Positions 118 through 15,937 of a stretch of DNA of 15,937 bases are shown here, in pieces. Below the pieces are notes generated by a model, which had not been told where the DNA came from, ran no database searches, and saw nothing but the letters and a program-made list of their open reading frames with translations. The position numbers and the translations under genes are program-made. The first letter of the stretch is position 1, and each line of letters begins with the position of its first letter. The stretch comes from a virus (lineage: Duplodnaviria; Heunggongvirae; Uroviricota; Caudoviricetes), in IMG/VR virus record IMGVR_UViG_2737471841_000003. One strand, 5' to 3'.

Positions 118-2256
118 ATGAGCAACAAAATCGTAGGTGAGATCACAAACGTCATTGGCTTTCAGACTGACAAACGAAGTTATGATCAAGTCAAAGCTGA
201 CATGCGCAAGCTAACCACTACGTGGAACCAGTGCGCTGACAAGATGAAAACGCCAGCACTGGAAAAGATGAAACAGGTAAACCAACAGTTGAGAAAACAG
301 CGTGATCTCCTGAGAGAGATTAAAGCGGCCCAAAGCGGTGTAACGGGTGTTCCCCGTGTCGGTGGAGGTCCGGCAGGCCTGGCAAGACCAAAAACAGGCA
401 ATACCCGCCAGATTTATAACAGGGTGAGGAAACAACAGGCAGCGGAGGCAAGGAGATTAGCCAACGAGGCAAGACGCCAGGGAATATTACAGGCACAAGC
501 TACCAGAGACTCCGCAAGAATTACCTCCACCTTCCAGCCTTCCACAGTCGATAAATACAGAAAACAAATCAGCGACCTGCAAGCCCAGCGGCCCAACATG
601 CCAGCCGCTGAATTTAATGCCCGTATGGGCAAACTTATGATTGACATGAAGAATCATGAAAAATCATTAATTCACTGGGACAAGGTGTTATCCAAAACAT
701 CAAGCACGCTTAAAAGGTTTAACTCTGGACTGAATACAGCGATTAAAGGCCTGGGATTCGCTGCCACGGCGCTGGGTGGGATGATTTATAAATCTTTCCA
801 GGTATCAGCACAGAATAACCGCGCTTATTACGGCTTACTTGCTCAAAATTCAGATGACAAAGCTCTTACCAAAGACCAGATGAATTTTGTGGATCAGATG
901 TCCGATAAATACGGCCTTTCGCTAATGGACGCACAAATGGATTATATGAAGTTCAGAGGGGCGACTAAGGCAACGATGGACGAATCCACAGCAAGGGGAT
1001 TGTTTGAAGCTACTACCATCAAAGGTACAACTGCAGGTACTAACGCACAAGGGATGAGCTTAGCGTTTAAAGCCCTTGAACAGATGAGTTCTAAAGCCTC
1101 GGTTTCCATGGAAGAATTGCGGCAACAGCTCGGCGATCACATTCCGGGTGCGGTTCAGGATTTCTATAAAGCGTGGAAGGAAACCGAAAACAAATCAGAA
1201 GCGACCTATAAGGATTTCGAGAAAGCGGTCAAGGCAGGCAATGTTCAGTTAGAAAAACTTGCTCCCTCCCTGATTAAAATCTGGTCAGTGGCTGAGGGTA
1301 CTGAGGCATTTGCTCAGGCAATGCAACAGCCAGAGAAGGAACTCCAGAGACTGAAAAACACTATGGATAAGGCCGCGATCAGCTTCATGGGTGTAATTGA
1401 CCCCACAGACGGCGTTATTTCAGTATCTGAATCTCTGAGCTACCTGTTCCGTGATATTAAGGCGGCTTTCGGTGAGGCAGATTTTAAAGCAATGGGTGAA
1501 CTGGTAGGTAAATTCCTGTATGAACTGCAATACAGGTTCTGGAGATTCTACTACGACACCGGGGAACCTTTCATGCAGAAGCTGAACGGTTTGTTGGGTG
1601 AGACTACCGATGAAAAGGTAAACACCATTTTTAAAGTGCTAAGTGAGTTGGTAAAACTCAAAGTTGCCATTATGGGGCTATCTGCAGCGACAAATGCAGC
1701 TAAAGCTATCTATACACTTAAATCTGCAATTGAGGCTTTATCGGGCGCATCTACCACGGCAGCGTCCACCGCAGGTAACAGAGGGAACGGCGTAACCGAT
1801 CTACCTTTACCAAAAGGCAACAACCTCAAAAACAGTGCTCTGGTTGAAAATGTCTTACAGAACTATGATGAGGCACAAGCCAAATGGAGGCGGGAACATC
1901 CCGAGGGTAGCGTAGATGTTACGTCTGTAAGAAGCTGGATACCTAAACCGCTTTTAGACTGGTATGACACAGCCGCAGCCACACCGGGCAAATTACCAGA
2001 ATGGATGGGTGGTATCCCGTGGAGGCCAACACCTACCATCAACACCTCACAGGCGCTGCCTATGCCGCAGATGAGTCCTGCATTCATTCAACAGGCTGGC
2101 GTAAACCCTGCTCTGAATATCCACACAGAGGGTGAATTACGAGGCGATATCAACGTTAAGGTCGATATGATGAATCAGGATGTTTATGTGGACCAAAGGA
2201 TTGATGCTAAAATCGATGATTATGAAACGCGCCAACTAAACCTGTTAGCTAGGTAA
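118..2256 (+). CDS. 712-aa virion-type protein, possibly tail tape measure protein
   Basis: ATG at 118 preceded by GAGGG (108-112). Long uninterrupted ORF with a coiled-coil-like, Q/K/R-rich N-terminal third, a hydrophobic segment (GLGFAATALGGMIY) and a segment (SVSMEELRQQLGDHIPGAVQDF) that resembles tape-measure core regions from memory. Followed directly by an intrinsic terminator. The function is inferred, not searched. Confidence 0.45.
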   Translation: MSNKIVGEITNVIGFQTDKRSYDQVKADMRKLTTTWNQCADKMKTPALEKMKQVNQQLRKQRDLLREIKAAQSGVTGVPRVGGGPAGLARPKTGNTRQIYNRVRKQQAAEARRLANEARRQGILQAQATRDSARITSTFQPSTVDKYRKQISDLQAQRPNMPAAEFNARMGKLMIDMKNHEKSLIHWDKVLSKTSSTLKRFNSGLNTAIKGLGFAATALGGMIYKSFQVSAQNNRAYYGLLAQNSDDKALTKDQMNFVDQMSDKYGLSLMDAQMDYMKFRGATKATMDESTARGLFEATTIKGTTAGTNAQGMSLAFKALEQMSSKASVSMEELRQQLGDHIPGAVQDFYKAWKETENKSEATYKDFEKAVKAGNVQLEKLAPSLIKIWSVAEGTEAFAQAMQQPEKELQRLKNTMDKAAISFMGVIDPTDGVISVSESLSYLFRDIKAAFGEADFKAMGELVGKFLYELQYRFWRFYYDTGEPFMQKLNGLLGETTDEKVNTIFKVLSELVKLKVAIMGLSAATNAAKAIYTLKSAIEALSGASTTAASTAGNRGNGVTDLPLPKGNNLKNSALVENVLQNYDEAQAKWRREHPEGSVDVTSVRSWIPKPLLDWYDTAAATPGKLPEWMGGIPWRPTPTINTSQALPMPQMSPAFIQQAGVNPALNIHTEGELRGDINVKVDMMNQDVYVDQRIDAKIDDYETRQLNLLAR

Positions 2257-2900: not shown

Positions 2901-3728
2901 TTATGGGTATACTACTCCTGCACTTTCCATTGCACTATCTACATAGGCTTTAGTTCTGGGAGACATGGGGGCATTACCCTTAGCTGCGTCACCCACATTC
3001 GACTCTTTAGACTTATCGTTCACAATGCCCTTATTCTTGGGTGGAGATTTCTTCGGATCAGAGAAAATTGTGGCTTCCACCATTTTAGTTTTGAAGGTCC
3101 TGAACTCCTGGAGAGTGATATCAAAGAGAATGGCCTCACCTTCGGTGTTCTTTTTGCTGGCACGCATCGAGGTAATGATAAAATTCTCATAGACATCTTC
3201 TTCTGTGACCAACGAGATTAATTGGCGTCTATCTATACATTCATTAACCGCCGCCAATGCCGCCGCCATCCTTCCACTTTCGCGGGGGGCTTCTGGATCT
3301 GTGTTACGGTCAATGTAGTTTGCCTTCCGGTACATCTGGGGAGAGGTAGTCACCCTGGCGGTGAAAGATATTTTGGTATCTTTGATCACGGCATGATCTG
3401 AAATAGTCACACCATCTTCTACAGCAAAATCTGTTTTCTCTATATCTCTGGTGACTTCATAATCGGTAATGCAGTCGAAGATAAGGCAAATGTTATCGGT
3501 GTAGTTAAATTCCTGTAAGCGATAATCCTGACCATGACCATTCAGGCCGGAAATTATCATGGTGAATTGTGCATCAGCCTGAGCTTTTTCTGCATTTAAG
3601 AATTTACCTTCATGCTCAACGCCCAATTCATCCTGGCTATAAATCCTTTCCCCAGTCTTCCAGTCCCTGCGACCTTCTGAACCATAGGAAACATCTTCGT
3701 TAATAACTACTTTATTGCTATTCATCAT
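2901..3728 (-). CDS. 275-aa acidic hypothetical protein; no domain recognised (could be a minor virion protein or an accessory gene)
   Basis: ATGATG start at 3728-3723 preceded by AAGGGGA. It begins 15 nt after the stop of the 53-aa HTH ORF, so the two are probably co-transcribed. TAA stop at 2903-2901. I see no Walker, HNH or PD-(D/E)xK motif. Confidence 0.7.
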   Translation of the reverse strand: MMNSNKVVINEDVSYGSEGRRDWKTGERIYSQDELGVEHEGKFLNAEKAQADAQFTMIISGLNGHGQDYRLQEFNYTDNICLIFDCITDYEVTRDIEKTDFAVEDGVTISDHAVIKDTKISFTARVTTSPQMYRKANYIDRNTDPEAPRESGRMAAALAAVNECIDRRQLISLVTEEDVYENFIITSMRASKKNTEGEAILFDITLQEFRTFKTKMVEATIFSDPKKSPPKNKGIVNDKSKESNVGDAAKGNAPMSPRTKAYVDSAMESAGVVYP

Positions 3729-3995: not shown

Positions 3996-5024
3996 TTATG
4001 CCGCTTCGGTTAATTTCAGTTTAAAAATGAAATCTGGCCTACTATTGAGGTACGCGGTATGGGATTCACAGAAGATTTTACGCTGGGTGTTAGTCTGTTC
4101 TAACCAGTAAATTTCCCGTGCAGGTGCACCGCTCATTGCATAGCGTAAATTACGGGTTGCAGGTCCCACAATTTCACTCATGCAAGGCAGGAAAGTATTC
4201 TTGCGAACTGCCGGAACAGCGTAAGCATGACCTTCTTTCATGAATGAATCGTCACAGCTGATAATAGTGATAGCAATGCCATCTACCTGGAATACAGAAT
4301 AACCCGGCAGATGTTCACCATCAAATACCATGCTGGATTTAACAGTACCATTACCGAACATAATAGCGCGGCGAATGTCTTTATCATCGTAACGCAGGCG
4401 ATCATAAGTTGAGCTATCTACGAAGAGATAAACCCCACCAAATGAGTGAACTAAACCGCCCATTTGTTTTTTGACCAGTTTTACAATTCGTTCAAGCTCA
4501 CGGATGAGATCGCCACCCAGGTTTAACTCATCTTCGGACTGTTTAAACTTGCCACCCAGTTCCTCGACAATATCGATATCCCCACCTTTGAAATGAATCA
4601 CGTTATCAAAGAGAGCGCGCTGCATAGCTTTTTCTCTTGCAATTTCAAGGCGTTGTTTCATGCTCAACAGGTGTTCACCCGTCACATCGTCCAAGGTTTT
4701 CTCACGATTGGTGCCTGGTTTGCGGTGACCCTGGAAAGCGCTGGCGCTGATCTGAGATTCCAGTGCATAAGCAGGAACACGCAGCATTAAAGTTTGTGCT
4801 GTACCTGTTACGATGCTGCCATAATCACCCAGATCATAATCGCTTACAACTGGGGCAGCTGATTGGGTTGCTGCAATAACGTTATCGAACACGAAGGAGG
4901 TTGTACTGGTGTAAATTTTTTCATTAAACAAGCCCAGAGAAGTGATCAGCTGGTTTTCTAATGTTGGTTCTAGCATCACACATTCTGTGACATCTTTATA
5001 ATCGAATAATTGAAAGTCTGCCAT
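3996..5024 (-). CDS. Major capsid protein, lambda gpE family (342 aa)
   Basis: Size matches lambda E (341 aa). Recalled local similarity to lambda gpE: KNTFLP vs KNFLP, SGAPAREIYW vs GDPAREFTM, and a similar central hydrophobic block. ATG at 5024. It sits directly downstream of a small decoration-like gene, as in lambda D-E. Confidence 0.7.
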   Translation of the reverse strand: MADFQLFDYKDVTECVMLEPTLENQLITSLGLFNEKIYTSTTSFVFDNVIAATQSAAPVVSDYDLGDYGSIVTGTAQTLMLRVPAYALESQISASAFQGHRKPGTNREKTLDDVTGEHLLSMKQRLEIAREKAMQRALFDNVIHFKGGDIDIVEELGGKFKQSEDELNLGGDLIRELERIVKLVKKQMGGLVHSFGGVYLFVDSSTYDRLRYDDKDIRRAIMFGNGTVKSSMVFDGEHLPGYSVFQVDGIAITIISCDDSFMKEGHAYAVPAVRKNTFLPCMSEIVGPATRNLRYAMSGAPAREIYWLEQTNTQRKIFCESHTAYLNSRPDFIFKLKLTEAA

Positions 5025-5036
5025 TCCATCCCCCTA

Positions 5037-5360
5037 TTAAAGTGCTAATTTGACATGTTCGTTTAACAGGTGGGGAATAGCTTCCGGAGGATTAATTCCG
5101 AAAGAATTTAATACCACACCGATCCCGTGAACAATAACTAATTTGTCGCCTTTTTTAGCTGGTTCCAATACCACAAATAAAGCAGGCATCTCTTCTTCGT
5201 CAGCGTCGAATTTTGCCCCTTCTGCGGTAATAACATCGCCAGGGAATAAATCCTCAGTTAATGCCGTTTTCAGTTCCAGAGCTTTTTGTTCAAACTCGGG
5301 GTCCATGGAATAGGCGACCACATCTGCACGTGTTTTACGCGGCTTATCAGAAAATAACAT
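5037..5360 (-). CDS. Putative head decoration protein (107 aa), lambda gpD-like by position and size
   Basis: ATG at 5360 with GAGGT SD. Its stop is 12 nt upstream of the capsid gene start. 107 aa vs 110 aa for lambda D. Sequence similarity to gpD was not confidently recognised; the call is positional. Confidence 0.45.
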   Translation of the reverse strand: MLFSDKPRKTRADVVAYSMDPEFEQKALELKTALTEDLFPGDVITAEGAKFDADEEEMPALFVVLEPAKKGDKLVIVHGIGVVLNSFGINPPEAIPHLLNEHVKLAL

Positions 5361-6038: not shown

Positions 6039-6095
6039 TTGCCGTTTGTCAATCCTTTTTTCAAAGAAATTTAAAAAATTTTTCTCTCCGCCTCT

Positions 6096-6142
6096 TTTCT
6101 CGATCAAACAATTGAAAAAACTATTGACTGAGGCGTTAGAAT
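6096..6142 (+). promoter_or_regulatory. Promoter for the homing-endonuclease-like gene: 13-bp upstream box TTTCTCGATCAAA, then -35 TTGAAA and -10 TAGAAT (19-bp spacer)
   Basis: The box at 6096-6108 is identical to 14751-14763, which sits in the same position relative to the consensus promoter at 14768. -35 at 6112-6117, -10 at 6137-6142. The spacer is longer than optimal. Confidence 0.35.
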
Positions 6143-6182
6143 GTGATACGGTTCACCACAAATGGTAAGTGGAGGGTGCGAT

Positions 6183-7013
6183 ATGAAAGAGAGAAAACAG
6201 GCTTTAGCTAAAACAACAGAGCAGTTCATCGCTGAGGCAAGGAAAGTGCATGGTGATAAGTACGATTATTCGAAAGTTGAATACGTGAATATGCGCACTG
6301 AGGTTTGTATCATTTGCCCAATACATGGGGAGTTCACACAAAGACCAGAGAACCATCTTCGCGGTAACAGAGGAAAGGGGTGTGGTTGCCCTATTTGTAA
6401 ACCTTGGAGAAAACGCCTGACACGAGAAGAGTTCGAAAGGAGGGTAAAAGAGGTACACGGTGATAACCTGGATGTTTCACAGTTCGATTATAAAAACGTT
6501 CACACAGAGGGTATTGTTAAGTGCAACAGGTGCGGCATGACGTTCTCGATACAGGCACAAGCGATTATCCTTAGAAATTCTGATGGTAGTCTTCTAGGCG
6601 GTTGCCCTGTGTGTGACCATCTACACAGAGACGCGGAATATGTTTATTTGGCGCTGGATGATCCACACTTTCCGACGAGATTTAAGATCGGGGTAACAAG
6701 CAACCCACAGGACAGATTGATAACTTTGAAGTGTAGAACACCTTTCAGGGTGTTTATGAAATGTTGTTTCAAAGTAGGAAAAGTGAAGGCGCGGAGGCTG
6801 GAGTACTTCCTGCACAACTTCTACAACTTCTGCAATTGTGGTTATGAATCAAGAAAGGACTTTCAGGGTGCAACAGAGTGGTTTTATTACCTGCAAAGTA
6901 AAGTAGGGGTGAAGAGGGTGCTCAAGATGTTAGTAAAACTGGTAAACGCCAGGAGCTACAACCGCCACTACATAAAGCATAAAAAGCCAACGTTTAAACG
7001 CACTTTGTTTTAA
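6183..7013 (+). CDS. Homing-endonuclease-like protein: two N-terminal Zn-ribbon repeats plus a C-terminal T5orf172 (GIY-YIG-like) domain
   Basis: Start moved to ATG 6183 (GGAGGG SD at 6171-6176); the track start at 6162 lacks an SD. Two tandem repeats of HGDKYDYSKVEY...C.ICP.HGEF.Q.P..HL.G.GC..C, then YVYLALDDPHFPTRFKIGVTSNPQDRL...EYFLH...ATEWFYY, which matches the T5orf172 pattern as I remember it. Confidence 0.65.
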   Translation: MKERKQALAKTTEQFIAEARKVHGDKYDYSKVEYVNMRTEVCIICPIHGEFTQRPENHLRGNRGKGCGCPICKPWRKRLTREEFERRVKEVHGDNLDVSQFDYKNVHTEGIVKCNRCGMTFSIQAQAIILRNSDGSLLGGCPVCDHLHRDAEYVYLALDDPHFPTRFKIGVTSNPQDRLITLKCRTPFRVFMKCCFKVGKVKARRLEYFLHNFYNFCNCGYESRKDFQGATEWFYYLQSKVGVKRVLKMLVKLVNARSYNRHYIKHKKPTFKRTLF

Positions 7014-7064
7014 TGGTGGGCCAGGGATGGTTATTGACTCTCAATCATTATTTTAAAAAAGATG

Positions 7065-7093
7065 TTGACTACCACACGGTAAAAGTGTATAAA
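7065..7093 (+). promoter_or_regulatory. Near-consensus sigma70 promoter (TTGACT, 17-bp spacer, TATAAA)
   Basis: TTGACT at 7065-7070, TATAAA at 7088-7093, about 40 nt upstream of the 7131 ORF. Confidence 0.5.
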
Positions 7094-7130
7094 GGGCCTA
7101 AAGAAAGAGAAGTGGCAAAGGAGGTAAAAA

Positions 7131-7250
7131 ATGTTCAGGCTGATGGTGAATGTCCTGGCGATAATCTTCGGGTTAGTGCTCTTTCTGATGGCCTGGAGCG
7201 TTATCTTTGAAGTAGTGGATATAGTGATGGCGATGTTAATGATTAAATAA
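7131..7250 (+). CDS. 39-aa hydrophobic single-TM peptide (MFRLMVNVLAIIFGLVLFLMAWSVIFEVVDIVMAMLMIK); not in the ORF track
   Basis: ATG at 7131 preceded by AGGAGG (7119-7124) at 6-nt spacing and by the 7065 promoter. TAA at 7248-7250. The overlapping track ORF 7013..7210 in another frame has no SD and covers the promoter. Confidence 0.4.
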   Translation: MFRLMVNVLAIIFGLVLFLMAWSVIFEVVDIVMAMLMIK

Positions 7251-7266
7251 CGCAGGAGGCAAGATC

Positions 7267-7329
7267 ATGAAACATTGGGAAGTGATTGCACTGTTCATCA
7301 TAATGTTTGTGATGTGCATCGAGTTTTAA
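7267..7329 (+). CDS. 20-aa hydrophobic peptide (MKHWEVIALFIIMFVMCIEF); not in the ORF track
   Basis: ATG at 7267 preceded by AGGAGG (7254-7259) at 7-nt spacing. TAA at 7327-7329. It is very short, so this is tentative. Confidence 0.3.
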   Translation: MKHWEVIALFIIMFVMCIEF

Positions 7330-7364
7330 CATTAGTCGATCAATATATTGAAGAGGTGACTACT

Positions 7365-7916
7365 ATGAAAACTATCAAAACTATCGCCGCTGTGGTCCTG
7401 GCAATGTTTGTGGGCAATGCTAATGCCGCCCTGGTGATCACAGACCAAGACATTGAAGACCACATGGAGACAATGGAGGTTTACTACCAGGCTGAGGATA
7501 TTGATTGTGAGATCTGGAGCAAGATGTTCACGAAAGGGGTAATTGAAGGTAACGACAAGTTCAGGCACGGTATCCGTGTTCACAAAGACCTCACAATTGT
7601 TGCCATGAAAGCTAAATCGGAGTTCTACAACAAATACGCAGGGGAGGTTGTCAAATCTGGCGCAAGTAAAGGATACAGCAAGGAGAGAGTAGATCAGATT
7701 AGAGATGTTTACATCGGTGCTTACATCGGTGCGGCCGAGATGAAATCTCGCGTAAACAGCAAGTTCGGCAAAGCCGCTGATCTTAACTCTGTAGCTAAAA
7801 AGAGAGCAGAAGCCGATCATTGGTTCAATTTCTGTGTGAAAGTGAAAGAAGAATATCCGGTCGTATTGTTCAACGAGTGGTTAGCTATAGCACAGCTGGC
7901 AGAAGATGATTTTTAA
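7365..7916 (+). CDS. Secreted (periplasmic) protein with Sec signal peptide, 183 aa
   Basis: Start moved to ATG 7365 (GAGGTG SD at 7353-7358). N-terminus MKTIKTIAAVVLAMFVGNANA/AL has n-, h- and c-regions with a predicted cleavage after ANA. There is no Cys at +1, so it is not a lipoprotein. The track start at 7275 lacks an SD. Confidence 0.6.
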   Translation: MKTIKTIAAVVLAMFVGNANAALVITDQDIEDHMETMEVYYQAEDIDCEIWSKMFTKGVIEGNDKFRHGIRVHKDLTIVAMKAKSEFYNKYAGEVVKSGASKGYSKERVDQIRDVYIGAYIGAAEMKSRVNSKFGKAADLNSVAKKRAEADHWFNFCVKVKEEYPVVLFNEWLAIAQLAEDDF

Positions 7917-7946
7917 CCGGGGACGATCATCGACTCAAAAAAGTGA

Positions 7947-7975
7947 TTGACAACGGAGGTGAGATCCGGTATAGT
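7947..7975 (+). promoter_or_regulatory. Near-consensus sigma70 promoter (TTGACA, 17-bp spacer, TATAGT)
   Basis: TTGACA at 7947-7952, TATAGT at 7970-7975, upstream of the 8011 gene. Confidence 0.5.
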
Positions 7976-8010
7976 TCACCACATAGAGAAGAGATACGGA
8001 GGGCAGCAAG

Positions 8011-8391
8011 ATGAAAACTTTCAATTGGGTTAAACCACAGATGTTACGTCGCGCCAATAACCACGGTGAGGGTGTACGCCACCACAACGACGCACCTGCA
8101 CCGGACATGAAGAAGGCACGCAAAGTGATCAATCTTCGTCAGGACGCGGCTATCGCTCGCAACCTGAAAGCAGAAGCGAAAAACCGTAACCCGTTGGAGG
8201 CAATTCTTGTTGCCCTGGTCAATGACCATGCAGCTCATTTCCGTCATTTCAATGGCATCAACCAGTACCAGATGGCAGAAGCCAACCGTAAAGAAGAAGA
8301 GCGGATCCTGGCTGGACTGGTACACGTTGAGATTGAACCTGAACCGGAACCGGAGGAAATTCATTGGGACCTCTGGAAAATGGCAGCTTAG
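8011..8391 (+). CDS. Hypothetical early protein (126 aa)
   Basis: ATG at 8011 with GGAGGG SD at 7998-8003. Contains a PEPEPE stretch. Function unknown. Confidence 0.6.
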   Translation: MKTFNWVKPQMLRRANNHGEGVRHHNDAPAPDMKKARKVINLRQDAAIARNLKAEAKNRNPLEAILVALVNDHAAHFRHFNGINQYQMAEANRKEEERILAGLVHVEIEPEPEPEEIHWDLWKMAA

Positions 8392-8452
8392 TCCACAGAG
8401 TGGATTTCACAGAGTGAAACCTGATAACAGGCAGCTTGAGGAGGCTTGAATC

Positions 8453-8917
8453 ATGAAAATTTTCAGTATTGAACATTACGAAGACAAAATTGAAGAGCTG
8501 GAAAGACTGGCTGAGATTGCAGATTATCGCGCGGGGTACGCCGCTGGACTTGCGGAAGTTCGGGAAAAAATACTTAAAAAATTCCACAGCTTGTACTATG
8601 TCCTGGCGGTTGCTGAGCAAGAACAAGATGAGGAGCTGTACGAGTACACGTCGTGCCGTATCCTGGAAATGGCGGGTGTGTACGGCATAATCAAGGCGGG
8701 AGAGGTGATCTCAGACGAAGAGATTGCGAAGAGACTTCGTAAACGCATCGAAAACGCATACTTTGAAGCGATCTACTATACGAAAAAAAGCACGGAGCTG
8801 TATAAACGCATAACTGCGGCGACGAAAGTTGTCACTCAGCTACAGAAAGTAAAAATCTTCAAACTGAAAGCGGCGTTGGCTATCGGTAAAATGTTTTTCC
8901 CACATCGTTTCAATTGA
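8453..8917 (+). CDS. Hypothetical early protein (154 aa)
   Basis: ATG at 8453 with GAGGAGG SD. Function unknown. Confidence 0.65.
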   Translation: MKIFSIEHYEDKIEELERLAEIADYRAGYAAGLAEVREKILKKFHSLYYVLAVAEQEQDEELYEYTSCRILEMAGVYGIIKAGEVISDEEIAKRLRKRIENAYFEAIYYTKKSTELYKRITAATKVVTQLQKVKIFKLKAALAIGKMFFPHRFN

Positions 8918-11030: not shown

Positions 11031-12008
11031 ATGACTACAGAAGTGATGATCCAGATTTTCGAATCTGATTTAAATAATGATGGTAACTTAGTCCCGGTTG
11101 TTAACGCCCGTGAGTTTTACGAAGCGCTTGGGATGCGAAAAGATTATGGAAATTGGATCAGGTGGCATCTTCGGAAATTTGAAAAAAATCGGGACTTTAT
11201 TACTTTTATCGATAAGTCGGGAGAACATCCGCGTCATAACTATTTTATCACTTTGGACACTGCAAAGCACATATGCAGGGTGAGCCAACGCCAGGAAGGT
11301 GAGCAGTTGCTACAGTATTTAATTAAAGTTGAAAAAAGATACCGTTTAGTACTGGACCCACAACCACAGATTCCTGTTTACACACAGTCACAGATTCCTG
11401 TTTACACACAGTCACAGATTCCTGTTTACACACAGACGGAACCTGAACCGTTGCCAGGAACACCGGAACATTTTGCCCGTGCATTTACGGAGGCTTACCA
11501 ACAGATATACGGGGCAACAGATCAGCAGCCAGTCATTGAGCACAATACGGAACCTGTGGTTCCTTGTTGGGGAGCTGGGTCTAATCAGAGCCTCGAGGTC
11601 CAGGATGTGCAGGAAGTACGACCGCCAGCACCTGTGCTGGGGTATTACAATCCTTGCCCGGACAACAAAATCAACATGAAAGGCTTAAAAGAATACCTGA
11701 GCAATGAACGCCTGATCAAGTACCTCATTAAAAAATTCAACATTGAAAATGAGATTTATGATTATGGTTACATAAATGTGAAAGGGAAAGCTGAGTCGGA
11801 GATTGTGTACGATAAACGTAAAACGCTGGCGATCTTACATGCCGCTTACGCTTTGAGTACTAGAGTAAACGCCACACAGAGAGAGTTTATGGGGATAGTA
11901 TTCACGATGTACAGGGTGTTAAGAGACACACATTATGATAAGGACATGTACGATACAGCTTACACTCTTCTTGAAGAGGATATAAACAAATTGTATAAAA
12001 TTGATTGA
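11031..12008 (+). CDS. Antirepressor-like protein with N-terminal AntA-type domain (325 aa)
   Basis: ATG at 11031 with a G-rich SD. The N-terminus (VVNAREFYEALGMRKDYGNWIRWHLRKFEKNRDFITF...YFITLDTAKHI) matches the AntA/AntB antirepressor N-terminal pattern as I remember it. Contains a triplicated QIPVYTQS repeat. Confidence 0.65.
   Translation: MTTEVMIQIFESDLNNDGNLVPVVNAREFYEALGMRKDYGNWIRWHLRKFEKNRDFITFIDKSGEHPRHNYFITLDTAKHICRVSQRQEGEQLLQYLIKVEKRYRLVLDPQPQIPVYTQSQIPVYTQSQIPVYTQTEPEPLPGTPEHFARAFTEAYQQIYGATDQQPVIEHNTEPVVPCWGAGSNQSLEVQDVQEVRPPAPVLGYYNPCPDNKINMKGLKEYLSNERLIKYLIKKFNIENEIYDYGYINVKGKAESEIVYDKRKTLAILHAAYALSTRVNATQREFMGIVFTMYRVLRDTHYDKDMYDTAYTLLEEDINKLYKID
11367..11438 (+). repeat. 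Three tandem 24-bp direct repeats (CAGATTCCTGTTTACACACAGTCA) inside the antirepressor-like gene
   Basis: Units at 11367-11390, 11391-11414 and 11415-11438; the third differs in its last bases. In frame, encoding QIPVYTQS x3. Confidence 0.9.
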
Positions 12009-12086: not shown

Positions 12087-12362
12087 ATGTATTACTACGA
12101 TTGCAAAGACCCGATTCTGGCTGAACGTAACCGCCTGGCTAATGAGATCGCCCAACAGGCAAAAGAGAAAAAAGCCCAACAGCGTATGGAGCTTGGAAAA
12201 GAGATTTACAGACTCCACACAGACGGCTACACAATGGAATGTATAGCCAAAAAGCTGGGAATGTCTGAACCAACAGCCTACAGACTGCAACGGGCATATC
12301 TGAAAGCTAACCCGCACCTCAAAGTGTTCTCGGGGCGTGTTGCGGCACGGGGTCGTAGTTAA
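12087..12362 (+). CDS. Small HTH DNA-binding protein (91 aa), resolvase/sigma-region-4-like HTH
   Basis: ATG at 12087 with GGAGG SD (12076-12080). The segment GYTMECIAKKLGMSEPTAYRLQRAY is HTH-like. Its stop lies 10 nt before the first operator-like palindrome. Confidence 0.6.
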   Translation: MYYYDCKDPILAERNRLANEIAQQAKEKKAQQRMELGKEIYRLHTDGYTMECIAKKLGMSEPTAYRLQRAYLKANPHLKVFSGRVAARGRS

Positions 12363-12371
12363 CACACACTA

Positions 12372-12408
12372 GGGACAAAATGTCCTACCTACCCGGGACA
12401 AAATGTCC
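12372..12408. promoter_or_regulatory. Two copies of a 14-bp palindromic operator-like site, GGGACAAAATGTCC, 23 bp centre to centre
   Basis: Exact copies at 12372-12385 and 12395-12408. Each is a dyad (GGACA-N3-TGTCC). Confidence 0.5.
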
Positions 12409-12409
12409 A

Positions 12410-12419
12410 CCCCCCCCCC
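12410..12419. repeat. Homopolymeric C10 tract
   Basis: Ten consecutive C at 12410-12419, directly after the second operator copy. Confidence 0.9.
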
Positions 12420-12449
12420 GGCAATATGTGATTCCCGGAAGACACATGT

Positions 12450-12486
12450 TTGTACAAATTGTAGTCACTGATTGTACAGATTGTAG
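12450..12486. repeat. Two direct repeats TTGTACA(A/G)ATTGTAG spaced 22 bp
   Basis: 12450-12464 and 12472-12486. Each has a TGTACA palindromic core. Confidence 0.6.
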
Positions 12487-12490
12487 CACT

Positions 12491-12573
12491 ATACCGGTTT
12501 TCCGATAGAGCTATACCGGATTTCCGGTAGAGGTATACCGCTTTTCCGGTATAGGTATACCGGATTTCCGGTA
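12491..12573. repeat. Iteron array: four 17-bp dyad-symmetric sites (ATACCGG-N-TTTCCGGTA) at exactly 22-bp spacing; putative replication origin or partition/regulator binding array
   Basis: Sites at 12491-12507, 12513-12529, 12535-12551 and 12557-12573. Arms TACCGGA and TCCGGTA are reverse complements. Followed by an AT-rich stretch (12574-12622), the same layout as the lambda origin (four dyad iterons plus an AT-rich region). Confidence 0.6.
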
Positions 12574-12622
12574 ACTATTAGATCAATCTATTACATCAAG
12601 AAAAAAGATCACTTATTATATT

Positions 12623-12645
12623 AAGGGCCTTGCCCTTTTTGTTGT
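12623..12645 (+). terminator. Terminator-like hairpin (AAGGGC, loop CTT, GCCCTT, then TTTGTTG)
   Basis: 6-bp GC-rich stem with a 3-nt loop, then a T-run, at the end of the AT-rich region. It would terminate read-through from the 12087 gene across the iterons. Confidence 0.35.
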
Positions 12646-13845
12646 GGGATTGATTGGTGGGATTGATCTTACTGATAGTATAATACTCCACCAATCAACC
12701 CTAAGTTGTGGGAGAGTACGGAGCAGACTGCGACTACAGAGCAGGCTGAGAAGTACTCAATGGGTGTAAGGGATTAAGGGACCCACACACATTTCCACAC
12801 ACAGAGTAAAGCCAGAGGCTTTATGAAGTGTAAGAGTAATGCCTAAAGAGTCGAAGCACACTTTAGGCTATATTGTGTGGGAGGTATCTGTACATAGTAC
12901 AGAGTACTCCCCATTATGTGGGGGCAATCCTGCCCGTAAGGGCAGCTCATGTGATTCGCAGCCGTAAGCTGAACTGCGACGAAGAAGGCTGCAAAGGTTC
13001 TCGGCCCGGTTACAATTACGCAACAATTTTATAATCTATCGTTAACCTATACCACTATCACAATTTCTATAGTTGAGTCCTACTATCCCCTACACCATAA
13101 AATCAATTTTAAGCCACACTCAGCCTACGGCTTCACGGTAAAACGTGTTTTAACCCACATAATGGCCCCTGTAGTGAGCTAAATGGTATACACCGCTATA
13201 ATTGGGTTACTTATGAGATAACCTCGTTAGAATCGATTCTAGAGCGTTTTAGAGCTTGAAATCCATCCTGCAAACTGCAAGATGATGATTCTATCGGGGA
13301 AGAATTTTTTTCCTTCCCGTAAGTCGTACCGTAGAGCAGATTTGCTTTACGAGCTTTCTCACACCTCAGGCCTCTGGCCTTCATGGAGTATCGGAGATAC
13401 GACTCACCGCATATACTCTGTTTTCAGTGCTACCCTGATCGCATCCGACCCTTTTCAGAGGCACTTTTAACCGCATTCTGGCACGCTACAACAGCAAGAA
13501 ATAGGCTGATTCTACTGATTTTACCTTACAATACAGGTACATAGCAGAAGGGCAGGAATATACTGTGAGAATGGTTGCTAGACCGGGCCTTCTTCTCTCT
13601 GTGTGTGCATTCTGAAACCGTTATGTAGTCGAGTATATAACGACTGGTCAGACCAGTGCAGGGCTGAAAATGATGATCGGTCACCACAATTATGGGCAAA
13701 TTACTGTACATTCATACAGTAGTTATACATAAAGAATATGCATCGATTGCTCTTTAGGCACAGATGTTATAATGTAACAATTAATTTAGTTTACCTCGGT
13801 AATCACTGTGTGGACATGTCACGCAACTAAACTAAATCCGAAGAG

Positions 13846-13854
13846 TTATCCACA
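13846..13854 (+). promoter_or_regulatory. Consensus DnaA box TTATCCACA
   Basis: Exact 9-mer match to the R-type DnaA box, single copy. Nearby are an 8-bp palindrome GACATGTC (13812-13819) and a 10-bp inverted repeat, ATTTAGTTTA (13783-13792) with TAAACTAAAT (13827-13836). Confidence 0.3.
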
Positions 13855-14687
13855 GATTGGGGGTAAATCATCAACATAGTCTGTAGCCTCTGACAGAGAG
13901 CAAAAAGAAAGGCCTTTTATGTGATCAATATCACGTTTCTGGGGTAGTTCTGGAGGCTTAGGTGCGGGGAAGTAGTGCGTACTGACACCAGAGGCCGCAT
14001 AAAACAAGGGGATTTAACATAATGGATCTTGTATACACCACACCTCACCACGTTGAAATCTGATCTTACTTTGAGGCTATCTGCCAACAGAATCCGCGTA
14101 CATGCACCATAACCTGTATGTGGGATGCAATAATAAAGGCCCTGGCGGCCCACAGGCCGCATGAATACTGGGCTTGTCATAGATATGGGCCTGTATCGCT
14201 ATGTAGATGCGGGATGACCTGTAAGGGTGTGGCAGGTGGCAGGGGCTGGAGGGCACGGTACAGCACAGCTAATGGGTGAGGCCCCAGATATTTGAGAATC
14301 ACTCTCACCTGAGAATAATTATCAGTAACTCCTGCCTAGTACCACCCCTGTAGGTAAGGTTGATCATTGCCCACATTGCTGGTATACTTTATCTGTGGGA
14401 AAGTAACGCCGTTACTTCCGCGAACGCTGTGCGTGATGTGTGGGAGAATGTGCCTGCGTAATAAAAAAATTGAAAATTACTCATCTGTCAACATTTCAAT
14501 GACGTATGTCAATCATTTATGCTATGTGTTTACTTTATAATCAATCACTTACGAATTTAATGAAATAAATGCATTTAAATAGGGTGAAACTCAAATCTAA
14601 CCCCTGAAACTGTGTTGATAAAGGGGCGTGAAGCCCGGCGTAGGTAACTCGTTACCCGCCAGTGTTATTGATAATTCTCATTTACGT

Positions 14688-14716
14688 TTGACAATGCAAT
14701 CCCAATGGTGTATAAT
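14688..14716 (+). promoter_or_regulatory. Perfect consensus sigma70 promoter (TTGACA, 17-bp spacer, TATAAT)
   Basis: TTGACA at 14688-14693 and TATAAT at 14711-14716, in an AT-rich upstream context. Confidence 0.6.
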
Positions 14717-14750
14717 AGACTATAAGGGGTAAGATAGAATCTTTACTCAA

Positions 14751-14796
14751 TTTCTCGATCAAAGGTATTGACAAATGAGAGTAAAGGTGTTATACT
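14751..14796 (+). promoter_or_regulatory. Second tandem near-consensus promoter (13-bp box TTTCTCGATCAAA, then TTGACA, 17-bp spacer, TATACT)
   Basis: Box at 14751-14763, -35 at 14768-14773, -10 at 14791-14796. It lies 80 bp downstream of the 14688 promoter. Confidence 0.6.
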
Positions 14797-14885
14797 TATC
14801 TATAACAGCAAAACTCTACTTTAGAGCCGCTCCATGAGGAGCAAAGCTCCGAAGTGTGATCATAGTCGGTAAATCCCTTACTTAC

Positions 14886-14918
14886 CGGGGGCACTTCTCC
14901 AGCCCCCTCTCTTTTTAA
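14886..14918 (+). terminator. Intrinsic terminator in the leader (GGGGGC, 9-nt loop, GCCCCC, then TCTCTTTTTAA)
   Basis: Stem 14887-14892 pairs with 14902-14907, followed by a T-run at 14908-14916. It is about 110 nt downstream of the predicted start site and about 50 nt upstream of the 14969 start. Confidence 0.5.
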
Positions 14919-14968
14919 CGGTATGGTAAGAAAACATTCTTTATAAGTGATAAAAGAGGTAGTTAATC

Positions 14969-15240: not shown

Positions 15241-15756
15241 ATGAGAGCAGTTTTTGATCAGCTGCCGTGGTGGCTTGATTTTCTCGAAGAACTGGACGGA
15301 AAGAAATTTAAACTGACAAAAGGTGAAGCGAGAGCATTTGCTTGTATTCTTACGTATGCCGCGACATGTGGTAAGATTTTCCCGTCACTCCACACAATAG
15401 CCCTTCATATGGGTTTACGGAGTGAAAAACGAGCGCCGACACAGGCGCATAAAGCGATCAAAGGCCTGGAGGAAAAAGGCCTTATACGTGTTAGCCGTCG
15501 CGCTGGGTGTGGAAACCATTATGAACTAGTTTACACAGCAGATCAACTCTTTGAGATGACAAAGCAACAGAATCCAGACTTGTTCAAAGGCTATGAAGAC
15601 ACGTTCGGAGAAGAGGATAGGGAGAGAGAACAGGCAGGGGATAAACCGAAGAAACATGATACAAAACAGGGGGTTACGTGTCAACATGACAACGGTCAAC
15701 CGGATGATATTCACATAGAAGCGTGTGATCTGGATGCTACTGACATACCATTTTAA
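15241..15756 (+). CDS. HTH_36-type winged-helix DNA-binding protein (phage replication/regulatory type), 171 aa, with SSB-like C-terminus (...DLDATDIPF)
   Basis: ATG at 15241 with AAGGTGG SD. The segment LTKGEARAFACILTYAATCGKIFPSLHTIALHMGLRSEKRAPTQAHKAIKGLEEKGLIRVSRR matches the HTH_36 pattern seen in the N-terminal domains of phage replication proteins. The terminal codons GAC ATA CCA TTT TAA were checked. Confidence 0.7.
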   Translation: MRAVFDQLPWWLDFLEELDGKKFKLTKGEARAFACILTYAATCGKIFPSLHTIALHMGLRSEKRAPTQAHKAIKGLEEKGLIRVSRRAGCGNHYELVYTADQLFEMTKQQNPDLFKGYEDTFGEEDREREQAGDKPKKHDTKQGVTCQHDNGQPDDIHIEACDLDATDIPF

Positions 15757-15824
15757 CATAAATCACAGCTCCGCATGAAGCTACGCTGAATAAATCACAC
15801 TGTATTAACAATGAGGTAACAAAA

Positions 15825-15937
15825 ATGAGTTTAGTTGAAAGATTGAAAAAAATCCTCGCCACAGAAGAGGTAGAGGAAGAGGAAGAAGTAGAGAAGGCGG
15901 CGGATCCTAAGCCTGAGAAGGCTGTGAATACCCAGAG
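15825..15937 (+). CDS. 5' end of a downstream gene (partial; MSLVERLKKILATEEVEEEEEVEKAADPKPEKAVNTQ...)
   Basis: ATG at 15825 with GAGGT SD (15813-15817). The ORF is open to the window end. Confidence 0.5.
   Translation, partial: MSLVERLKKILATEEVEEEEEVEKAADPKPEKAVNTQ

Follow-up and report, generated by a model that had tools for sequence, protein, structure and literature searches.

A candidate envelope-directed module of two micro-proteins and an exported protein in a 16-kb phage-like element of Escherichia coli

The 15,937-nt virus sequence IMGVR_UViG_2737471841_000003 (hereafter the window, meaning the whole stretch of DNA analysed) is the entire contig JUDJ01000049.1 of the Escherichia coli assembly GCA_000798295.1. 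Between positions 7065 and 7916 it encodes two hydrophobic micro-proteins of 39 and 20 residues (A and B), followed by a 183-residue protein with a Sec signal peptide. We tentatively propose, at a probability of about 0.4, that these three genes form an accessory module directed at the cell envelope, that its carrier is a circular phage satellite or mini-phage of E. coli, plasmid-like and ~16 kb in size, and that the module would interfere with phages at the envelope. Of the readings of this locus, an accessory role at the envelope is the most economical. An earlier description made from the letters alone (the sequence-only reading) had placed two tiny hydrophobic peptides and a secreted protein here, and the three open reading frames (ORFs) are indeed present at those positions; it did not cover the modular shuffling seen here, the exchange of mature-domain alleles in the exported protein or the nature of the carrier element.

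The genes and signals of the module are listed below, with the Shine–Dalgarno (SD) sequences; relatives of the window carry labels of the form L002.

7040-7110, plus strand: promoter cassette, recognised from its sequence, its copies in the window and its orthologues in L002, L003 and L004
7119-7124, plus strand: SD sequence AGGAGG of the 39-residue gene, 6 nt before the ATG at 7131
7131-7250, plus strand: micro-protein A, 39 residues, MFRLMVNVLAIIFGLVLFLMAWSVIFEVVDIVMAMLMIK (ORF list, homologous clusters, codon analysis)
7254-7259, plus strand: SD sequence AGGAGG of the 20-residue gene, 7 nt before the ATG at 7267
7267-7329, plus strand: micro-protein B, a short hydrophobic peptide of 20 residues, MKHWEVIALFIIMFVMCIEF (ORF list, synteny)
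7353-7359, plus strand: SD sequence GAGGTGA of the 183-residue gene, before the ATG at 7365
7365-7916, plus strand: 183-residue ORF (ORF list)
7365-7427, plus strand: Sec signal peptide, 21 residues, MKTIKTIAAVVLAMFVGNANA, predicted to be cleaved between ANA and A (n, h and c regions)
7428-7916, plus strand: mature exported protein, 162 residues plus stop (family alignment, AlphaFold2 model)
7920-7990, plus strand: next promoter cassette, CGATCA..AAAAAAG..TTGACA-17-TATAGT..CACATAGAGA, which forms the right-hand border of the module and drives the gene at 8011-8391

Two conserved micro-protein genes

Neither small ORF (micro-ORF) is annotated in the contig record; 20 residues probably falls under the usual length cut-off of gene callers, and micro-proteins of fewer than 50 residues are systematically overlooked by annotation. 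Because both show purifying selection, conserved length and a conserved SD sequence, comparison among relatives shows that they are genuine genes for membrane-type peptides, as the sequence-only reading had supposed, and the near-perfect AGGAGG motifs that it had noted are confirmed in front of each. Across both strands of the window there are only seven sites that combine a strong SD sequence with an ATG, and five of them, including those of the two micro-ORFs, precede real ORFs. The two peptides are predicted to insert into the inner membrane.

Micro-protein A consists of a single hydrophobic span (approximately residues 4-26) and a conserved tail, VIFEVVD..MAMLMIK. With the query extended by one natural upstream codon to reach the length minimum of the database search, we retrieved 21 clusters of homologues of 36-39 residues, one of which is called as 64 residues from an upstream start; their consensus is MFRLMANVLAIIFGLVLFLLAWGVIFEVVDIVMAMLMIK. 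Codon analysis gave a proportion of synonymous differences (pS) of 0.46-0.58 against a proportion of nonsynonymous differences (pN) of 0.05-0.16, that is, a pN/pS of about 0.1-0.3. The protein is 69-72% identical across lineages whose capsids share 28% identity, and it occurs in seven of the eight distinct relatives that have the locus, being missing only from L004. The SD sequence AGGAGGTAA and its spacing are conserved as well. This sequence is formed by the last codons (Arg-Arg-stop) of an upstream helix-turn-helix (HTH) gene that is still present in a distant lineage, where it encodes 84-239 residues and lies directly 5' of the 39-residue gene (4497-4751 in L013, 2921-3616 in L014 and 5546-6265 in L016). 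The window retains only the SD sequence as a relic of this gene, and in L003 a 15-codon ORF at 8439-8486, MKPVNAIKEIRLKRR, is a deletion remnant of it. As a side observation, the conserved residues A-W-[GS] before VIFEVVD (residues 21-24, window 7191-7202) satisfy the -3/-1 rule of signal peptidase I; the 39-residue product could then be a pre-peptide that releases a 16-residue hydrophobic peptide instead of a membrane anchor.

Micro-protein B was followed by synteny, and its ORF has exactly 20 codons in L002, L004/L005, L010/L011, L014/L015 and L016. Between L002 and L004 there are four nucleotide differences and no amino-acid change, one of the exchanges being CGC for AGG (both Arg). The version found in a divergent lineage with 28% capsid identity, MKRYE[MI]IMLIV[MV]M[IF]VMCVEL, still has 20 codons and keeps the pattern. 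Searches of Pfam and NCBIfam with five micro-peptides at E<10 returned no hit except a meaningless one to DUF2701 (E 0.99), and PHROGs and PADLOC yielded nothing for all the peptides.

A predicted exported protein with a swapped mature domain

The 183-residue protein begins with an n region (MKTIK), an h region (TIAAVVLAMFV) and a c region (GNANA, with cleavage predicted before the following A) that ends in an A-x-A site. These features are those of a Sec signal peptide, which recurs in 13 of the 14 aligned family members; together with two invariant cysteines they agree with the exported, periplasmic character that had been proposed for this protein. A longer, 213-residue reading of the gene from TTG 7275 was discarded, its extension being poorly conserved and interrupted in L002, and one that would leave the signal peptide buried inside the longer product. 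The family is tiny, with five clusters in a set of 5.8 billion proteins and 12 hits of a profile search among 1.84 billion representatives. The 14-sequence alignment has Cys48, Cys157, Lys53, Gly58, Tyr116, Gly118, Lys161, Ala174 and the C-terminal Phe183 as invariant positions, and no invariant Asp, Glu or His. Cys48 and Cys157 fit a candidate periplasmic disulfide, and from these features we infer a protein that is exported and disulfide-bonded in the periplasm.

An AlphaFold2 model built with the 14-sequence alignment is confident and all-alpha, with a predicted local distance difference test score (pLDDT) of 86.7 and a predicted template-modelling score (pTM) of 0.84; it was used in place of a five-sequence model, for which the pLDDT was 45. 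Its C-terminal tail has low confidence. Every family member ends in Phe, as ...G[DE]F, DDF or GKF (window 7908-7916). Free C-terminal aromatic residues are recognised by the PDZ domains of periplasmic proteases, and it is pure speculation that the invariant Phe docks into such a domain. Fold searches of the PDB and BFVD revealed no relative, a profile search of PDB sequences gave only a match at E 0.058 to an uncharacterised protein, and Pfam, NCBIfam, PHROGs and PADLOC returned nothing for the family. The top Foldseek match in the PDB, the secreted chorismate mutase, is not significant (E 0.56, TM score 0.34). The AroQ-gamma enzyme of Mycobacterium tuberculosis (2f6l/2fp2) is likewise secreted, all-helical and of about 165 residues, but the 183-residue family has no Pfam match to it (CM_2), and whereas the AroQ active site is expected to contain arginines, the family invariants (two Cys, two Lys, Tyr, two Gly, Ala and Phe) include none.

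Comparison with L003 locates the variation within the gene. The secreted proteins of the two elements are 38% identical, whereas the flanking proteins are about 97% identical. At the DNA level, identity is 85-90% over the signal-peptide codons, drops to 35-50% over the hypervariable mature domain (7431-7870) and reaches 95-100% from 7902 onward, which marks the mature domain as an allele swapped between conserved ends. Distant homologues of the protein in the unrelated phage contigs L007 and L008 again lie amid genes for small membrane proteins, in L008 near a homologue of lambda Kil.

Promoter cassettes and the transcription unit

The module is headed by a promoter with a -35 hexamer TTGACT (7065-7070), a 17-nt spacer and a -10 hexamer TATAAA (7088-7093), preceded by a GATCA-like/A-tract element (AAAAAAG, 7054-7061) and followed by the conserved initial transcribed motif CTAAAGAAAGAG; transcription is predicted to start near 7099-7101. 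The sequence-only reading had called it a consensus promoter. A promoter of the sigma-70 type is present, but it is only near-consensus, matching at 10 of 12 positions, and a strict consensus scan did not list it because it lacks the highly conserved -7 T, the last position of the -10 hexamer. The match nevertheless exceeds chance; orthologous sites are found in relatives, and the site belongs to a family of repeated cassettes. These follow the pattern GATCA, A5-6 tract, G, N3, TTGAC(A/T), N17, TATAGT-like, N5, CATAGAGA-like; the window has copies at 6124, 7065 and 7947 on the plus strand and at 6052 on the minus strand, and orthologous copies occur in every relative examined, including L002, L003 and L004. 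It may be added that the GATC within the cassettes opens the possibility of control by Dam methylation or by a regulator.

No stem-loop terminator accompanies the cassettes at 7000-7110 or 7916-7990 in a terminator scan, and the cassette of L004 at 8807 is the only one in a relative that is preceded by a GC hairpin. Terminator-like sites are also absent between the three ORFs and after 7916. The operon that had been suggested is likely to be bigger than 7065-7916: transcription probably runs past 7916 into the genes that follow, for which there is a separate promoter at 7947 (TTGACA-17-TATAGT). To call the operon early, as the sequence-only reading did, overstates the case; that timing is an assumption about a non-standard element of ~16 kb, in which the promoter of the capsid operon (6052, minus strand) is likewise of the sigma-70 type. 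A structured leader or riboswitch-like RNA was considered and found unsupported, since the RNA of 7099-7385 shows no excess of structure over shuffled controls (z -0.33) and no Rfam family matches in the window. A weak antisense promoter-like site (7371 to 7342, 9/12) is present; L002, L004 and L010 have a different sequence at this place.

Variation of the locus among relatives

We compared the locus among close relatives, whose capsid proteins are 85-96% identical, and in the distant lineage mentioned above.

L002: A and B, plus two more hydrophobic micro-ORFs (37 and 34 residues) behind an extra promoter cassette
L003: A present, B absent; a third micro-ORF, C (MKHYDDDKAGTFTIWFIAALMATLFMLIAEA); the 15-codon remnant of the HTH gene
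L004: B present, A absent
L010: A and B, plus a downstream membrane ORF of 29 residues
L013, L014 and L016 (distant lineage): A, plus B or other membrane micro-ORFs, adjoining the intact HTH gene

Where the secreted protein would be expected, the distant lineage has a multi-pass membrane protein or a homing endonuclease. The additional cassette of L002 sits precisely at the insertion of the two extra micro-ORFs, and in the window and in L002-L004 alike a repeated strong sigma-70-like promoter lies beside variable small ORFs. Judged from these arrangements, the locus is a mix-and-match array in which close relatives have gained, lost or reordered different membrane micro-ORFs, and repeated promoter cassettes form its borders.

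Envelope interference and alternative functions

We consider it more likely that the module obstructs other phages at the envelope than that it controls lysis timing or is toxic, because dispensable, mobile and hypervariable genes near a homing endonuclease follow the pattern of conflict genes. In the proposed mechanism, competing phages or helper phages would be the targets, and the module would act on them at the envelope, possibly by blocking DNA entry (superinfection exclusion) or by modifying envelope targets. The variable mature domain would set specificity in an arms race, and the promoter cassettes, possibly together with the adjacent homing endonuclease, would serve as recombination linkers by which the cassettes are shuffled. 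The pairing of membrane micro-proteins with an exported protein agrees with the envelope-directed role put forward by the sequence-only reading, but the exclusion or toxin activity that it named is conjecture to which no family link can be given. Micro-proteins and a structurally novel exported protein here make up a rapidly shuffling locus, as is typical of phage-phage and phage-host conflict. Should the module block phage entry or re-time lysis, new and very small effectors would join the envelope-level anti-phage mechanisms, and the locus would offer a compact system for gene shuffling driven by promoter cassettes.

A bolder version, possible but doubtful, sees the module as a shufflable 'envelope toolkit' of an undescribed class of autonomous E. 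coli elements, circular, plasmid-like phage satellites of 14-16 kb and of the iteron/Rep kind, in which the 39-residue protein would be the key effector on entry or lysis of the helper or of competing phages and the periplasmic allele would give target specificity. Such elements would have genes of their own for gpE/gpD-like capsid, tape-measure-like and Dit-like proteins and no portal or terminase, and the 39-residue micro-protein is the most conserved single protein across the class.

Several observations weigh against envelope interference. Searches of Pfam, NCBIfam, PHROGs, PADLOC, the PDB and BFVD gave no similarity in sequence or fold to known exclusion, defence, lysis or toxin proteins, and homology to Imm, Sp, Sim, SieA, gp15, Cor, Llp or the PADLOC systems was not found. 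Micro-protein A is more conserved than the capsid, which points to a possible core role in the life cycle and not to an accessory one; recent horizontal exchange via the cassettes would explain this conservation equally well, with a pS of ~0.5 that is below saturation. The missing -7 T of the -10 hexamer detracts from the promoter that heads the module. Finally, the window and L004 share their type of tape-measure protein (TMP, 67% identity) yet not their type of secreted protein (34%). Co-variation of secreted-protein and tape-measure alleles is unsupported, the comparison of four genomes being negative or underpowered, and a TMP-directed exclusion model consequently gains no support from the alleles.

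Among the alternatives, control of lysis timing ranks first but is unlikely. T4 RI is a periplasmic regulator that binds the holin T, and by analogy the peptides would disrupt holin, antiholin or lysis inhibition while the 183-residue protein acted as a periplasmic regulator, so that a satellite-like element would set or accelerate the lysis of its helper, as LidI does for the satellite PLE. The lack of recognisable lysis genes, of a portal and of a terminase makes it probable that the element depends on a helper; across lineages no protein is more conserved than the 39-residue peptide, as would be expected of a key life-cycle effector; and LidI, too, was a small transmembrane ORF that had gone unannotated and had no homologues (PMC7182436). 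Against this stand the secreted family, which has neither the invariant acidic or His residues of a muralytic enzyme nor a match to a lysis family, and the lack of a muralytic domain in the 183-residue protein and of a lipoprotein- or spanin-like ORF within 7000-8000. The module also heads a sigma-70-driven cluster beside regulator-like genes and not structural ones, and A or B has often been lost from close relatives, which argues against an essential role in lysis. Moreover, peptides of 20 and 39 residues are below the size of holins, of which we know none shorter than about 57 residues. Modulation of host physiology is less probable again. Peptides of the SidA type inhibit division, and MgrB, AcrZ and SgrT are small membrane-protein regulators; the micro-proteins might bind host inner-membrane proteins in similar fashion while the exported protein hits a periplasmic host factor. 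Their single span and size are typical of such regulators, the lambda Kil homologue of L008 belongs to the same small-gene cluster, and the C-terminal ...G[DE]F is invariant in a tail of low model confidence; but no homology to any such regulator was found in Pfam or NCBIfam, the PDZ idea is purely speculative, and a hypervariable mature domain is more easily reconciled with an arms race than with a host target that is conserved.

We regard as more improbable still that the peptides are membrane toxins of the type I kind, pore-forming or depolarising, that serve post-segregational killing or abortive infection in a plasmid-like replicon. Type I toxins such as Ibs (19 residues), Ldr, ShoB, TisB and Hok are indeed alike in size (19-50 residues) and in their mostly single hydrophobic helix. 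The element is plasmid-like in having four 22-bp iterons, a winged-helix Rep-like gene and, in relatives, a resolvase, and the weak antisense promoter-like site would be in keeping with this idea. But no toxin family matches at E<10, no antisense RNA gene is conserved, as seen in the 9/12 site whose sequence changes in L002, L004 and L010, and Rfam is silent. Type I toxin mRNAs are translationally locked, whereas here strong SD sequences stand unsequestered at optimal spacing and the RNA of leader and ORFs folds like its shuffles; several such peptides, besides, share a transcript with ordinary genes, made from a promoter that looks constitutive. The type I form of the membrane-toxin idea raised by the sequence-only reading is thus a poor fit. 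Hardly credible, at the far end, is that the small ORFs are non-functional, whether as chance ORFs, as leader ORFs regulating the 183-residue gene or as by-products of conserved DNA. Conservation of the DNA is high around the 20-residue ORF and along its 3' flank, and this ORF stops 35 nt upstream of the 183-residue start. Yet the substitutions are mostly synonymous, and the overlapping frame from TTG 7275 alters six of ten residues where the 20-residue frame alters conservatively. Lengths and SD sequences are kept across lineages with 28% capsid identity, there is no attenuator or terminator structure, and neither A nor B is tied to the other or to the 183-residue gene (L013, L014 and L016 are without that gene, L003 without B and L004 without A).

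Relation to known systems

Imm and Sp (spackle) of T4, Sim of P1 and gp15 of HK97 are superinfection-exclusion proteins of the inner membrane or periplasm, and Sp and Sim are periplasmic proteins with a signal peptide. The proposed module resembles them in combining small inner-membrane proteins with a Sec-exported periplasmic one, in being encoded by a mobile element under host-type promoters and in being dispensable. They are its closest functional analogues, without membership by sequence or fold: PHROGs, where those proteins would be expected to be represented, and the PDB and BFVD fold searches gave no match, and the peptides described here (20 and 39 residues) are far smaller. The module is an addition to the known class of accessory envelope proteins of phages and satellites, with protein families that are entirely new.

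LidI of the Vibrio cholerae satellite PLE was itself a once-unannotated small transmembrane ORF without homologues that was found by synteny, and it acts on an envelope and lysis process of the helper (PMC7182436). As a small transmembrane ORF of a satellite it is comparable to the micro-ORFs, but it has 66 or 121 residues and no relation in sequence, and PLE is integrated in the chromosome whereas the element here is apparently an autonomous circle. The cassettes, in turn, are analogous to the mobile regulatory PeSL cassettes found in T4-type phages, which mediate shuffling (PMC2839356, PMC4122927). In both, repeated strong sigma-70-like promoters flank small non-essential ORFs in hyperplastic regions and stand at the insertion, deletion or replacement differences between close relatives. 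PeSLs, however, have a stem-loop terminator where the cassettes of the window have none. The two also differ in motif (GATCA, A-tract, TTGACA-17-TATAGT, CATAGAGA in the present case) and in carrier, here a circle of 16 kb as opposed to a 170-kb myovirus.

The carrier element

Outside the module, the following genes were assigned, by hidden Markov model (HMM) searches unless another basis is given.

118-2256, plus strand: tape-measure-like protein
2901-3728, minus strand: Dit-like protein
3996-5024, minus strand: gpE-like major capsid protein
5037-5360, minus strand: 107-residue protein that occupies the place of lambda gpD (assigned by position only, without a family match)
6162-7013, plus strand: T5orf172/DUF723 homing endonuclease
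8011-8391, plus strand: gene driven by the 7947 promoter cassette (cassette position)
11031-12008, plus strand: AntA-like protein
12087-12362, plus strand: HTH protein of 91 residues (HTH_23)
15241-15756, plus strand: winged-helix Rep-like protein

Apart from these, the largest ORF has 342 residues or less, and the HMM searches of the window proteins detected no portal, terminase or lysis gene. An ORF of 72 residues (MSLVERLKKILATEEVEEEE...KRFNE) runs uninterrupted across the junction of contig end and start (15823-15937 joined to 1-106) and is homologous to a 74-residue gene of L004 that lies between the Rep-like and tape-measure genes; for this reason the window is most likely a complete circular (or permuted) genome of 15,937 bp. 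All 21 clusters of the 39-residue peptide come from contigs no longer than 15.3 kb, which fits an autonomous element of 14-16 kb. GenBank phages matched only at the homing-endonuclease gene, by near-identity and protein searches; there was no near match in 5,426 complete E. coli genomes, and none among plasmids, where a 100-bp stretch in the AntA gene was the only match. IMG/VR returned nothing from the capsid search or from two micro-ORF DNA patterns, and the JGI metagenomes and GTDB genomes nothing from degenerate patterns for both peptides or from a capsid profile. The family may represent undescribed autonomous satellite-like or plasmid-like elements, and if the carrier is a new kind of satellite, anything it encodes gains value.

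The region 12363-14968 (~2.6 kb) is without a called gene, its longest ORF having 62 residues. It contains four iteron-like repeats of 22 bp (12483-12570), two copies of GGGACAAAATGTCC (12372-12417) adjoining ten consecutive C residues, as well as two consensus promoters (14688 and 14768); no Rfam family or tRNA was found in it, and the contigs of L003 and L004 break within its equivalent. It probably holds an origin, a packaging site or both. The 91-residue HTH_23 protein encoded next to it has weak similarity to Terminase_5 (gpP-like, E 0.053) and could be a small-terminase-like factor of packaging specificity, as in other satellites.

Where the window has its homing endonuclease, L002, L003 and L004 have a resolvase (a serine recombinase of 188 residues), and related endonuclease genes are found in L003 and L013 at other positions. 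Nuclease genes that border variable segments may promote the exchange observed. Exchange is not confined to the module, for the tape-measure-like protein of the window (118-2256) is only 25-26% identical to those of L003 (1575-3623) and L010 (3895-5949), although the capsids of the same elements are 92-96% identical, and the Dit-like protein varies among elements in its C-terminal part; the tail-related genes, too, are therefore exchanged alleles.

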